Assembly: GCA_963798665.1 (NCBI GenBank)
Contig: CAWCUN010000019.1
Location: 59,324 to 123,323 of the forward strand
Length of the DNA stretch: 64,000 nucleotides
Origin: an uncultured Chitinophagaceae bacterium
GTDB lineage: Bacteria > Bacteroidota > Bacteroidia > Chitinophagales > Chitinophagaceae
Direction of reading: 5' to 3'
Every line of letters begins with the position of its first letter. The first letter of the stretch is position 1. The translations under genes and the position numbers were made by a program. Shown here piece after piece: positions 14,718 to 18,775 of the stretch. Under the pieces are notes generated by a model. That model was not told the origin of the DNA and made no database searches. It saw nothing but the letters and a program-made list of their open reading frames with translations.

Positions 14718-15386
14718 TTATTCGATCATCTTATTTCTCATGCCATACATTATGAGGCCGCCTATTGTTTTAGCTCCCACCTTATTCTTCATATTTTGAC
14801 GTATAGTTTCAATTGTTCGCGGACTCAGGAAGATGATTTTGGAGATTTCCTCCGTTGTTTTGTCTTCACCAAGTAGCTGCAATATTCTTAATTCCTTTTC
14901 GCTAAATGTGATGGGTATATTGTTGCCGTAATGATGACGCACATTTTTCTTTTGCATCAACTTGCCCATTACAGCATTATTAACCAACTGATTAAAATAA
15001 AAATCATCATTCATACATGTGCGAATGGCCTCATAGATTTCCTCCGGATCAGTAGTTTTTGTAAGATAGGCATTTGCTCCCATCTCCATCATTTTGCTAA
15101 TCATCTGTTGATCATCATACATCGTGAGAACGATTATTTTTACGTCCTCATATTCCTTGCGAAGCATTGAAATAGCATTTATCCCATCTATTTCAGGCAT
15201 CCTTATATCCATTAATAATACGTCCGGCTTTTTTATGTTGATCTTGTGCATAAGATCTTTACCATCCTCGGCCTCCCATATCATTTTTAGATTCTCTTTG
15301 GTTGAGAGAGCCATTTTGATCCCGTCCCTGAAAATTTTGTGATCGTCGGCTATTGCAATCTTTATCAGTGCAGTGGTTACAGACAT
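14718..15386 (-). CDS. NarL/LuxR-family response regulator (RR2), divergent from the signalling operon
   Basis: IADDH, LLMDIRMPEIDG, YLTK, HTH FSEKELRIL...LSPRTIETIRQNM. Confidence 0.92.
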   Translation of the reverse strand: MSVTTALIKIAIADDHKIFRDGIKMALSTKENLKMIWEAEDGKDLMHKINIKKPDVLLMDIRMPEIDGINAISMLRKEYEDVKIIVLTMYDDQQMISKMMEMGANAYLTKTTDPEEIYEAIRTCMNDDFYFNQLVNNAVMGKLMQKKNVRHHYGNNIPITFSEKELRILQLLGEDKTTEEISKIIFLSPRTIETIRQNMKNKVGAKTIGGLIMYGMRNKMIE

Positions 15387-15496
15387 GGATTTATTTACTT
15401 ATAGTAGTTGCGGTAAAAATATAAAACAATAACGAACAAAGTACCAATGTATTTCAAAAAACGTCTATTATTTTTATCTATATCCCCGGTTTTCGC

Positions 15497-15535
15497 GAGT
15501 AAAACTACAATAGTAAATTTACTATTACAAATGTA
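15497..15535 (-). promoter_or_regulatory. RR2 promoter: -7 box TACATTTG followed by the perfect 18-bp palindrome AATAGTAAATTTACTATT and an adjacent degenerate copy
   Basis: Minus strand reads TACATTTG(15535-15528) TAA TAGTAAATTTACTA(15524-15511) TTGTAGTTTTACTC(15510-15497). Confidence 0.7.
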
Positions 15536-15835
15536 ATTTGTGAAGGCTGAATTTTTGCACTTTTACTCAAAAGAGTGTATTAATCACATTGTAAAAAATG
15601 AGCAATTATCCAGCAAAAAGATAATCAAGGTACATTTGCCGGCTTAAGCAAAATTCTAAAAGAGGTGGTGGGAATCTGCTCTCGCCGAAAAATATCAGCT
15701 TTAAGCGCTTTTATGCGAAACTTTCCAATATTTAGTTGTTAGGTCAAGAATCTTAGCTTTCGGGATTGCATTATGAAGTGGCGATTGAAAAAAATCCCTA
15801 TTCGTATTTATACAATTTTTCAGAAAAATTTTTCG

Positions 15836-15884
15836 TACATTTACCATAGTAAATTATCGACAGTCTAGATAGTAATTTTACTAT
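15836..15884 (+). promoter_or_regulatory. Promoter of the small-protein operon: TACATTTA box followed by two operator-like sites
   Basis: TACATTTA(15836-15843) CCA TAGTAAATTATCGA(15847-15860), then ATAGTAATTTTACTAT(15869-15884), a near-perfect palindrome. Confidence 0.6.
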
Positions 15885-16082
15885 TTTTAAAAGTATATTT
15901 ACCTCTTTTTTACTGTTGATTTTACGTATCTACTTATGGCAAAACCCTTACCCATATTGACTTTTACTAAATTTTCAGAATTGAATTTCGTAAAATACCC
16001 TTTGTAAAAAATTTTGTTTTTGAGGAAGTTAGTATCCAAAATTGACTAAAAGCTATTTTAAAACAACTAAAAACTTACAATT

Positions 16083-16454
16083 ATGACACCAAACGCACTC
16101 CCAGAAACCAAGAACCTTGCTGAAGTAGGTGAAGACATCGGACTTGCAGAAGGAATTGAACTAGTAAAAGCTTTTCAGGAAGCTAACCCTGATGCTACTT
16201 CAGGATATTACATAGGCCGTAATATACTTGAGCAAATTATGGCACAACCTGGTTGCGTGGGAATCAATTTCCGCAAATGCCTTACCAACATGAACGAAGA
16301 ACATTTAGTTTATACAGGCGTTGATGCTGATGGAAAAGACATACTGCAATACAGCGTGATTACAAACACAGGTGATATCGAAAAGCAAAATGGCATTGTT
16401 GCCGATAGAATAATGTGGTTTGAAGACTGGAAAAATATTATGGAGATCGATTAA
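16083..16454 (+). CDS. Small soluble hypothetical protein (123 aa) of a Bacteroidota family found upstream of 7-TM/histidine-kinase genes
   Basis: ATG in an A-rich context. Core IGRNILEQIMAQPGCVGINF...LVYTGVDADGKD...IVADR. The family assignment is from my recollection of homologues, not a search. No signal peptide. Confidence 0.8.
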   Translation: MTPNALPETKNLAEVGEDIGLAEGIELVKAFQEANPDATSGYYIGRNILEQIMAQPGCVGINFRKCLTNMNEEHLVYTGVDADGKDILQYSVITNTGDIEKQNGIVADRIMWFEDWKNIMEID

Positions 16455-16563
16455 TGAAATACCGCTATATTTTTTAAAAAATTAAAATAGATAGTTATAT
16501 TTGGTCTCAAACTGACCTGCTATTTTAAATATTATAAAATATACCAACCTTATTTCACTTTTA

Positions 16564-17208
16564 TTGCCCTTGGCGTTTTTTCTTTTGTTTAAAATACATT
16601 CAAAAGAAAAATCGTTAAGGGTAATTTTTTATTATTTGATTTATTGCATTACTAACGATGCATTAGGTTTTTATTTTCAGAAGGTTGTACATTCTGAAAA
16701 CTTCTTTATTCTCTACGCAATTTTTACCGTAGCAGAATTTAGTTTCTTTTGCCTTTTCTATTATTATATTCTGCCGATAGGCTTAATCAAAAGAAGCGTT
16801 TTTTATATTTGGCTGCTTTTTTTCCTCTTTGCAATAATTGATTTTTTCCTGATAAATAATATGGATGCCTTTGATTCAATCACCGTCGGTGTTGAATCGA
16901 TTTTGATCATACTAATGTGTATCTATTATCTTGTCGGACAAATAAGATCATCTAACAGTTTTTTAATTTACTCAACAACAAATTTTTGGATTATAATCAC
17001 CTTCCTCATTTATATGTCAGGAACTTTTTTTCTTTACATAATGGCAGAAAATATGCTAAATGACAAGTCGTTTCAAAAACAATATGTTGTTATAAATGCC
17101 GCATTTAATATTCTAAAAAACATCCTACTTTCTGTTTCCATGCTTATGAAACCTGGCTTGGTTCGAACTCAAGCTATAAGACATAATGATAGAGACGACC
17201 TCTTTTAA
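16564..17208 (+). CDS. Stand-alone seven-transmembrane protein (putative split receptor for the downstream kinase)
   Basis: Seven hydrophobic segments if the in-frame upstream stretch 16516-16563 (PAILNIIKYTNLISLL) is included in TM1. The start codon is uncertain (TTG at 16564, or ATT/ATA upstream). TATATTTG box at 16496-16503. Confidence 0.8.
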   Translation: MPLAFFLLFKIHSKEKSLRVIFYYLIYCITNDALGFYFQKVVHSENFFILYAIFTVAEFSFFCLFYYYILPIGLIKRSVFYIWLLFFLFAIIDFFLINNMDAFDSITVGVESILIILMCIYYLVGQIRSSNSFLIYSTTNFWIIITFLIYMSGTFFLYIMAENMLNDKSFQKQYVVINAAFNILKNILLSVSMLMKPGLVRTQAIRHNDRDDLF

Positions 17209-17225
17209 ACTAAAAAATTAAACTG

Positions 17226-18065
17226 TTGGACATTTATATGTTCTTTTTACAAGCGACTGAAAATACTATGGGCTTTTCTAACGTACTCATATTTGGAACA
17301 ATAGGTATGTTTGTAATGGCTATTACGCTTGTATCAGTAGTGGTGTTTCATCAACGGAGAGTTATAAGATTTAACAAACAACTGCAAAAACTTGAAGAGG
17401 AAAAACAACAAATGTTACTTAAAGCCTCTATAAGTTTCCAGGAAGAGGAACGGCAACGCATTGCTGCAGATTTACATGATGATGCCGGGCCTTTATTAGC
17501 AACTGCAAGACTTTACCTTAATGAAAATTTAATTCACCAGGAACCCGCGGTACAATTGCAATCAATATTTAGCGCCAAGCAAATTATAGATGATAGCATC
17601 CAGCTTATAAGAAATATTTCTCATAGCCTGATGCCACCAACACTAAAAAACTTTGGACTTGAATCTGCTATGAAAGATATGTTTGATAAAATAAATGGTT
17701 CAGGAGTAATTAATGCCAGTGCACGTTTTCACGATAACCGGGAAAGACTCAGTGAAGAACAGGAATTATTAATTTTTAGAATCTTACAGGAATTGGTTAC
17801 CAATATTATTAAACATAGTTACGCAGGATTTATTCATCTTACTCAGAATGTGCAGGGAAATTTTTCATACTTTCGCATACACCATGATGGAAAGGGTATT
17901 TTGCAATCGGAATTTCAAAAGCTCAATTATAATTCAACCGGACTAGGGCTAAAAAATATAGAGAGTCGAATAAAAGTGTTGAAGGGAAGTATTTCATTTG
18001 ATATCGACAGTACTCATACATATTATAAGGTAACAATTGAGGTACCCAGGGAAATCGCTAAATAA
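17226..18065 (+). CDS. HisKA_3-type (NarX/DegS-like) histidine kinase with one N-terminal TM helix and no sensor domain
   Basis: TM VLIFGTIGMFVMAITLVSVVVF; H-box EERQRIAADLHDDAG; N-box QELVTNIIKHS; HDGKG and GLGLKNI G-boxes. Confidence 0.92.
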   Translation: MDIYMFFLQATENTMGFSNVLIFGTIGMFVMAITLVSVVVFHQRRVIRFNKQLQKLEEEKQQMLLKASISFQEEERQRIAADLHDDAGPLLATARLYLNENLIHQEPAVQLQSIFSAKQIIDDSIQLIRNISHSLMPPTLKNFGLESAMKDMFDKINGSGVINASARFHDNRERLSEEQELLIFRILQELVTNIIKHSYAGFIHLTQNVQGNFSYFRIHHDGKGILQSEFQKLNYNSTGLGLKNIESRIKVLKGSISFDIDSTHTYYKVTIEVPREIAK

Positions 18066-18118
18066 ACAAGTTGTTCATTCCGTTTATATCTTTGCGTTTT
18101 TAATTTAACCCATTTAAA

Positions 18119-18775
18119 TTGAGTATGGATACAATTAAGGTTGCCATAGCCGATGATCACAAGATTTTCAGGAAAGGAGTAATTCTTTCTTTACGGCCAT
18201 ACCATAATATTAAATTTGTACTCGAGGCCGAAAACGGCGAAGAACTTATACAAGGCATAGAAGCGGCCCACCCCGATATCATTTTAATGGACCTTAAAAT
18301 GCCCGTGAAAGACGGCATTGAAACTACGAAATATCTCAATAAGCATTATCCGGCCATACGTGTGTTGGTACTTACAATGTATGAAGATGAAAGATTTGTC
18401 GGTCATTTAATGGATAGTGGCGCCAACGGCTATTTATTAAAAAGTACCGACCCCGAAGAAATAAAACAAGGGATTACTGATGTGATGCGAACTGGTTTTT
18501 ATCTCAATAATTTTGTGAACAGGGTGCTTATCAAAAAAAATTATGCCAAGCAAAAATTTAACCCAAACCTTAATAGCGAAGTAATAATAAGCGAGAGGGA
18601 AAAGGAAGTACTTTCATTGGTTTGTATGGAATACACTGCGCAGGAAATTGCACAAAAAATGGATATAAGTGCGAGAACCGTTGAAGCAATTAAAGACCGA
18701 CTGATGGAGCGTTTTGGGGTAAAAAATTCTGTGGGGCTTGTTTTCTTTGCAATGAAAAATTCTTTAATCGATTAA
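18119..18775 (+). CDS. NarL/LuxR-family response regulator (RR3), likely cognate to the upstream kinase
   Basis: IADDH, ILMDLKMPVKDG, YLLK, HTH ISEREKEVL...ISARTVEAIKDRL. Has its own TATCTTTG box at 18087-18094. Confidence 0.92.
   Translation: MSMDTIKVAIADDHKIFRKGVILSLRPYHNIKFVLEAENGEELIQGIEAAHPDIILMDLKMPVKDGIETTKYLNKHYPAIRVLVLTMYEDERFVGHLMDSGANGYLLKSTDPEEIKQGITDVMRTGFYLNNFVNRVLIKKNYAKQKFNPNLNSEVIISEREKEVLSLVCMEYTAQEIAQKMDISARTVEAIKDRLMERFGVKNSVGLVFFAMKNSLID

Follow-up and report, generated by a model that had tools for sequence, protein, structure and literature searches.

How a histidine kinase that carries no sensing domain receives a signal is the question raised by a locus in the genome of an uncultured Chitinophagaceae bacterium. 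We analysed a 64,000-nucleotide stretch of this genome (GenBank assembly GCA_963798665.1, contig CAWCUN010000019.1, positions 59,324 to 123,323 of the forward strand), referred to as the window. The locus consists of a response regulator gene, RR2, which diverges across a 696-bp control region from genes encoding a small protein of 123 residues, a protein with seven transmembrane (TM) helices (7-TM protein), a HisKA_3 histidine kinase (HK) and a second response regulator, RR3. An original prediction, made from the DNA alone, had described four co-oriented genes and a divergent paralogous regulator, and all five open reading frames (ORFs) are indeed found where it placed them (Table 1). The gene arrangement is not due to chance, as it recurs in 80 of 80 related loci and in many distant genomes. 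Judging from gene content and linkage, the locus probably encodes an accessory-protein-dependent two-component system, the sensor of which is split over two polypeptides.

Conservation of the module across Bacteroidota

The order RR2, divergent from small-7TM-HK-RR3, is found in all 80 close loci of sufficient length that were fetched. Ginsengibacter hankyongi and Hanamia caeni (loci L010 and L064) are among the bacteria with this identical arrangement. The flanks of these loci, which include genes for a uracil-DNA glycosylase, an acyltransferase and a CoA-transferase, are also syntenic, so this set alone is no proof of linkage. Profile searches were carried out in a sample of 401 evenly drawn Bacteroidota genomes representing 180 genera. 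The 7-TM family is present in 64 genomes and 45 genera, in open frames that always range from 208 to 290 residues. Both families coexist in 42 genomes and both are absent from 321; of the other genomes, 22 have just the 7-TM family and 16 just the small family. Most loci with the small family only (12/14) have the order small-multiTM-HK-RR, with a membrane protein too divergent to reach the threshold. An exhaustive search found 729 representative 7-TM homologues; the 150 homologues listed range from 88 to 303 residues, and none is fused to a kinase.

Linkage was scored in 69 loci outside the clade of the window, which hold 77 7-TM genes. A kinase gene lies directly downstream of 63 of these genes, and 7 others come first in a tandem pair of 7-TM genes. 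Of the seven left, four are followed by kinase genes with frames overlapping beyond the distance cut-off. The open frames of 7-TM and kinase genes often overlap, suggesting that the synthesis of the two proteins is coupled. No other gene is conserved beside the module in the distant loci, and no gene for an exporter, a protease or a modifying enzyme is linked to it. Co-occurrence of the four genes, which had been set beforehand as a test of the original prediction, thus extends far beyond close relatives to distant loci with different flanks. In five loci (L104, L105, L114, L115 and L138), two or three tandem 7-TM genes precede one kinase gene.

The pair formed by the small and 7-TM genes is associated with two classes of kinases. 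In Bacteroidia, these are short HisKA_3 kinases. In an Ignavibacteria-like lineage, the pair precedes genes for kinases of 410 to 670 residues with a single TM helix and PAS, HisKA and HATPase_c domains, some of which also include a receiver (loci L096, L098, L101, L107, L113, L119, L120, L122, L123, L126, L129, L130, L135, L138 and L139). Kinases of the two classes share only a single N-terminal TM anchor. Because the same pair is found before two unrelated kinase classes, it behaves as a portable input unit for single-pass kinases.

The hypothesis that a fused multi-TM kinase was split here, by a frameshift or as a pseudogene, was rejected, as the two genes are separate in 80/80 related loci and in every distant locus. 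A peptide natural-product or bacteriocin locus was also rejected, since the large neighbouring genes are unrelated housekeeping genes and differ between loci.

The kinase and the response regulators

The kinase consists of an outer tail of about 10 to 15 residues and one TM helix, located near residue 11, directly followed by the HisKA_3 and HATPase_c domains. No PAS, GAF or other input domain was found in the Pfam scan. The catalytic boxes are intact in the translation (H-box LHDDAG, N-box TNIIKHS, G-boxes HDGKG and GLGLKN) and the receivers of the regulators keep the DD...D...T...K residues, as in classical two-component systems. The NCBIfam models of MctS, UhpB and LiaS match only the C-terminal catalytic part of the kinase, far below their cut-offs. 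The absence of an input domain and the presence of one TM helix, both noted in the original prediction, hold true for the kinase of the window and for those downstream kinases, 55 in number, to which a TM helix could be assigned. The latter feature a short tail and a single helix within the first 110 residues, followed by a basic cluster.

Conservation was measured in 73 related loci of the clade. RR2 (~88%), RR3 and the kinase (84–88%) are more conserved than the small protein (73%) and the 7-TM protein (53%). Conservation of the kinase is lowest over its first 30 residues (0.47–0.67, vs at least 0.85 for most of the rest). Membrane parts (0.53 for the 7-TM protein, 0.47–0.67 for the kinase N-terminus) evolve much faster than the cytoplasmic signalling parts (0.85–1.0).

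A regulator gene follows the kinase gene in most loci and, by this position, RR3 is taken to be the cognate regulator, present in the module phylum-wide. The divergent RR2 gene is present in other Chitinophagaceae genera and not in distant modules; judging from this distribution, RR2 is a Chitinophagaceae-specific addition. The window also contains RR1 (1472–2270), an orphan NarL-type paralogue. Within the genome, RR1 is the protein most closely related to RR2 (phmmer E 2.4e-63), and it may be served by the module kinase as a third branch. In two Chitinophagaceae metagenome contigs, L151 (787–2958) and L154 (1339–3422), a second unit is found immediately past RR2, which places two modules back to back. 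This unit consists of genes for an unknown protein of 214 to 234 residues, a HATPase_c kinase and a regulator.

The 7-TM protein and its start codon

Translated from the TTG codon at 16564, the membrane protein holds only about 6.5 helices. Homologues have 14 to 22 additional N-terminal residues, which complete TM1. In the window, the frame is open from 16516, after an in-frame TGA at 16513–16515, and contains no ATG, GTG or TTG before 16564. Canonical starts are also missing from the stretch preceding the conserved residues LP in many relatives. Among about 60 relatives, ATT predominates as the codon located 14 positions ahead of LP; ATC is less frequent there, and ATA never occurs. The conserved, non-canonical ATT (AUU) at 16522 is therefore the likely start of the 7-TM gene, as far as codon conservation can tell. 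Reading of the TGA triplet as tryptophan was rejected, because this position is occupied in relatives by TGA, TAA, TAG or sense codons, and no canonical start is found further upstream.

A conserved DNA block (16480–16512) separates the small and 7-TM genes and contains the sequence TATATTTG (16496–16503). The latter matches TAnnTTTG, which we take to be the consensus of the Bacteroidetes -7 promoter element. The block AATAGATAGTTATATTTGG recurs in relatives, in which its translation upstream of the 7-TM frame is NR*LYL. An internal promoter for 7TM-HK-RR3 may be located here.

The AlphaFold2 (AF2) model of the 16516–17205 product features seven long helices arranged in a compact bundle and no soluble domain, with a mean predicted local distance difference test (pLDDT) score of 91.9. 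According to the positive-inside rule and our own reading of loop charges, the N-terminus is predicted to be outside, and the C-terminus inside. Foldseek comparison of the model with PDB structures gave only weak matches to generic bundles similar to G-protein-coupled receptors (GPCRs; E at least 0.09, TM-score ~0.5). The sequence profile of the family gave no significant match in PDB, with rhodopsins at E 0.4–0.7. The window protein has no Pfam or NCBIfam match, and no Pfam family recurs at E ≤ 0.01 among 47 members of the family. The same Pfam scan did not assign any of these members to 7TMR-DISM, HisKA_7TM, 5TMR-LYT or MASE, and the homologues seen are all stand-alone proteins. Known bacterial multi-TM sensor modules, in contrast, are normally fused to an output domain.

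Conserved positions include a glutamate in TM3, an outer FDS loop, a glutamate in TM5, the stretch YEQI...FIY...FW, the residues SGTFF in TM6 and N...(K/R)N in TM7. No histidine or cysteine is conserved in the family alignment. The conserved residues would suit a polar pocket or a salt bridge, and do not fit a known enzyme or retinal site. Several candidate functions were rejected. The 7-TM protein is not a rhodopsin-like receptor, as the position of the TM7 lysine varies between K and R, and rhodopsins are not among the 50 fold matches listed. Neither an intramembrane protease of the CPBP or rhomboid type nor a DsbB/VKOR-like oxidoreductase acting on CPPxC is compatible with the lack of conserved histidines and cysteines, and no such Pfam family recurs among the members.

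The small protein

The small protein has no Pfam or NCBIfam match, no hydrophobic segment and no signal peptide. Its close homologues, 736 in number and all annotated as 'hypothetical', are restricted to the Ginsengibacter/Hanamia part of the Chitinophagaceae. The protein comprises a conserved folded domain of about 100 residues, and its last ~15 residues are variable. In the window clade, tail identity ranges from 0.39 to 0.44, vs 0.7 to 0.87 elsewhere in the protein, which is under purifying selection. The AF2 model is poor (pLDDT 51) and its Foldseek matches are meaningless; the sole PDB match obtained with a profile, to thioredoxin, was weak (E 0.04).

Most family members (41/46) carry a CP..C motif near the C-terminus, typically PCPPxC, often followed by D..SEL. 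The cysteines have been lost in the window clade, which features a variable tail rich in tryptophan and acidic residues instead. A signal peptide or a lipobox is present in 25 of the 46 members and in none of the other 21. The ORF of the window clade cannot be extended upstream.

In most distant loci, profile searches locate a homologue of the small protein gene directly upstream of the 7-TM gene, and the two genes abut or overlap. Other Chitinophagaceae genera (loci L082–L084, L086, L087, L089–L091 and L093) keep RR2 and the divergent 7TM-HK-RR3 genes without the small gene. In these nine loci, a non-coding gap of 400 to 850 bp is found in its place. A homologue is absent genome-wide in seven of the nine, and the genomes of L082 and L087 carry only distant homologues elsewhere. 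On this distribution, the small protein is best described as a frequent but dispensable member of the module, which argues against its being an obligatory ligand.

Some loci feature two small-protein genes, i.e., L124 (3081–4579), L122 (4254–5513) and L167 (3001–4812). In L124, genes for small proteins with and without a signal peptide are located on opposite sides of the 7-TM gene.

Control region and further copies of the module

The divergent region contains a perfect palindrome, ATAGTAAATTTACTAT, at 15510–15525 and a second one with a single mismatch, ATAGTAATTTTACTAT, at 15869–15884. In the 5.6-Mb genome, the 14-nt core TAGTAAATTTACTA has one perfect match and two matches with one mismatch, vs 0.16 and 5.6 expected, respectively. 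Two of these three best matches are located in the control region, and the third within a coding region. Nearly all of the related loci that were examined retain a palindrome copy about 210 nt ahead of the small gene. The palindromes are candidate NarL-type operators, and autoregulation by RR2 and/or RR3 would be the natural inference. Conservation of the candidate operator and the location of its best matches in this region fit autoregulation, in line with what had been originally proposed. A wider palindrome regulon was rejected since, beyond the two local copies, the sole match with fewer than two mismatches sits in a coding region.

The genome carries five modules, the window copy included, and some of them lack the small gene. 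The features of the locus and the further copies are listed in Table 1.

Table 1 Features of the window locus and additional module copies carried by the genome
Feature	Position	Strand	Basis or remarks
RR2, NarL/LuxR-type response regulator (receiver and GerE helix-turn-helix domains)	14718..15386	-	Pfam Response_reg 2e-28, GerE 3.5e-10
Divergent control region, 696 bp, with TAGTAA(A/T)TTTACTA palindromes	15387..16082		Perfect at 15510–15525, one mismatch at 15869–15884
Small soluble 123-residue protein	16083..16454	+	No Pfam/NCBIfam model
TATATTTG, candidate internal promoter for 7TM-HK-RR3	16496..16503	+	Matches TAnnTTTG, taken to be the -7 consensus
Stand-alone 7-TM protein, predicted kinase partner/sensor	16522..17208	+	AF2 model, start-codon analysis; ORF called from TTG 16564
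Histidine kinase, HisKA_3 + HATPase_c	17226..18065	+	Pfam HisKA_3 2.1e-07, HATPase_c 1e-08
RR3, NarL/LuxR-type response regulator	18119..18775	+	Pfam Response_reg 6.4e-25, GerE 9.6e-13
Further module	C2:260505-262617		Order 7TM-HK-RR
Further module	C22:134841-137636		Order HK-RR-small-7TM, small protein with CPPHC ending
Further duplicated module	C11:41105-43505 and C12:47-2324		Next to repeated sequence, after a protein ending in PCPVC

Comparison with known systems

In its proposed function, the module is closest to LiaFSR/VraTSR and UhpABC, in which a HisKA_3 kinase is under the control of a separate membrane protein. Its gene layout resembles that of Agr and ComQXPA, and its principle that of sensory rhodopsin and its transducer. 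It lacks the features that define membership in each of these families. In the LiaFSR and VraTSR systems of Firmicutes, a HisKA_3 kinase with minimal extracytoplasmic parts and a NarL-type regulator are controlled, as is proposed here, by a separate membrane protein the gene of which lies just upstream in an autoregulated operon. The combination of a HisKA_3 kinase and a NarL/GerE regulator in one operon is found in the window as well. However, LiaF is not a 7-TM bundle, and consists of N-terminal TM helices and a cytoplasmic LiaF C-terminal domain; Pfam and NCBIfam models detected no accessory protein of the LiaF/VraT type in the window 7-TM protein or in 47 homologues. LiaS spans the membrane twice and includes a HAMP domain, while the window kinase has one helix. 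In some species (enterococci), LiaX acts as an additional small or secreted modulator of LiaFSR (PMC10269926). The LiaS model matches the window kinase in the catalytic core only (65.8 bits vs a cut-off of 450), and the kinase is not a LiaS orthologue.

In the UhpABC system of Escherichia coli, the HisKA_3-family kinase UhpB and the NarL-type regulator UhpA similarly receive the signal from a separate polytopic receptor, UhpC, a textbook case of a split receptor. The latter is a 12-TM homologue of major facilitator superfamily transporters and UhpB has an 8-TM domain of its own, whereas the window locus encodes a small 7-TM protein and a one-helix kinase. The UhpB model matches only the catalytic part of the kinase (82 bits vs a cut-off of 408).

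The Agr (AgrBDCA) and ComQXPA systems are also four-gene loci, which encode a small precursor-like protein, a polytopic membrane protein of about 200 residues, a kinase and a regulator and are subject to autoregulation, as is proposed here. ComP and ComA are of the HisKA_3 and NarL types, as in the window. In these systems, however, the kinase bears a receptor with 6 to 8 TM helices and the additional protein is a processing enzyme, whereas the window kinase has no receptor. The 7-TM family lacks conserved cysteine and histidine residues for AgrB-type catalysis, and the small protein of the window is a folded domain. The locus gave no match to the AgrB and AgrD families, its kinase is a one-TM HisKA_3 protein, and its regulators carry GerE and not LytTR domains. 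No ComQ-type prenyltransferase gene is present in the window locus or in the distant loci.

In the archaeal sensory rhodopsin II-HtrII complex, as is predicted here, a 7-TM receptor acts by lateral contact between TM helices on a separate membrane-anchored transducer that controls a histidine kinase. Sensory rhodopsin has a retinal site; the 7-TM family has none, and in several members the mid-TM7 lysine is an arginine.

The original prediction knew of no named system with this organization, and this still holds: no family model, source annotation or paper describing the module was found. Both families lack Pfam and NCBIfam models and are labelled 'hypothetical' everywhere, and a full-text literature search found no description. 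We conclude that the module is a genuine, previously undescribed two-component system that depends on accessory proteins, and that two unannotated families make it up.

Discussion

The 7-TM protein is a constant, never-fused neighbour of kinases of two classes, and a partnership at the membrane level is therefore the best reading of this association, as had been proposed from the window alone. The kinase would be anchored by a single TM helix, with no sensing domain of its own. The 7-TM protein, encoded immediately upstream and made together with the kinase, would pack against the kinase helix in the membrane. It could set the balance between kinase and phosphatase activities by binding a ligand in a polar intramembrane pocket, by responding to a membrane property, or by acting as a gate. 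The kinase would then phosphorylate RR3 and, in Chitinophagaceae, probably also the RR2 paralogue. Once phosphorylated, the NarL-type regulators may bind the palindromes of the control region (TAGTAA(A/T)TTTACTA), autoregulating both transcription units. The small protein may be an accessory modulator or a co-sensor of the 7-TM protein, and not an obligatory ligand, as some sister lineages manage without it.

Several observations weigh against this model. The kinase TM helix has no family-wide motif, a GT pair being found only in Chitinophagaceae and in the lineage with PAS kinases. Fast evolution of the membrane parts could be due simply to weak constraint. PAS kinases own sensors, so the 7-TM protein is not the sole possible input there. 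The compartment of the small protein differs from member to member, and a single conserved mode of binding is difficult to reconcile with this. Finally, the order small-membrane protein-HK-RR would also suit an effector-first operon of the liaIH-liaGFSR type.

The last point leads to an alternative, though unlikely, explanation, in which the small and 7-TM proteins are outputs, i.e., effectors induced by envelope stress, and the kinase senses through its own TM helix or an unlinked partner. LiaR induces liaIH, which is located ahead of liaGFSR, and the gene order of the window locus resembles that of the lia operon. A conserved operator is present upstream of the small gene and, given the DNA-conserved TAnnTTTG box before the 7-TM gene, induction could concern the small gene, with 7TM-HK-RR3 as a basal unit. 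In contrast, the tight, often overlapping 7-TM/kinase junction and the re-use of the pair with a second class of kinases point to a complex, the abutting or overlapping small and 7-TM genes of distant loci leave no room for a separate promoter, and the kinase would be left with about 15 extracytoplasmic residues and no input. It is highly improbable that adjacency of the genes merely reflects inherited synteny without functional coupling. Synteny does extend over the entire neighbourhood in the 80 closest loci, but the module is kept across families, orders and classes with every flanking gene different, and also with a different class of kinase.

The small protein had been predicted to be, or to make, the ligand of an Agr-like circuit. 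Quorum sensing of this kind, in which the 7-TM receptor would recognize the released small protein, or the C-terminal tail of this protein, in an Agr- or ComX-like autoinducing loop, is quite unlikely. Positive feedback would be possible, as the small gene is the first of the operon and lies downstream of the conserved operator. The family, moreover, combines a conserved body with a variable C-terminal end and the short cysteine motif PCPPxC, often followed by D..SEL, and about half of the members have a signal peptide or a lipobox, and hence reach the outer face of the membrane. However, conservation concerns a folded domain of some 100 residues rather than a short leader, and the window clade has lost PCPPxC and encodes a protein with no signal peptide and no possible upstream extension. 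An exporter, a protease or a modifying enzyme is linked to the module in no lineage, sister Chitinophagaceae genera keep RR2 and 7TM-HK-RR3 without the small gene, and genomes may hold up to five modules, some lacking this gene. The prediction is therefore not supported. It is very doubtful, too, that the PCPPxC protein acts as a ligand, either diffusible or presented at the surface, and that a GPCR-like 7-TM receptor binding it signals in trans to the single-pass kinase. If true, Bacteroidota would have in this module their first system of cell-cell signalling based on a protein or peptide, and the Ginsengibacter/Hanamia version would be a derived variant lacking cysteines and featuring a Trp-rich tail.

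If, as we favour, the 7-TM protein is the membrane partner of the kinase, the module bears on a wider problem. Sensor-less kinases are common and poorly understood, and the two unannotated families would account for the input of one single-pass class, found in roughly a fifth of the sampled genomes (64, and at least 12 more with a divergent 7-TM protein, of 401). Re-use of the pair with two kinase classes would make it a natural model for the lateral transfer of signals between membrane proteins. The module is a testable candidate for signals that Bacteroidota sense, and its two families merit database models.

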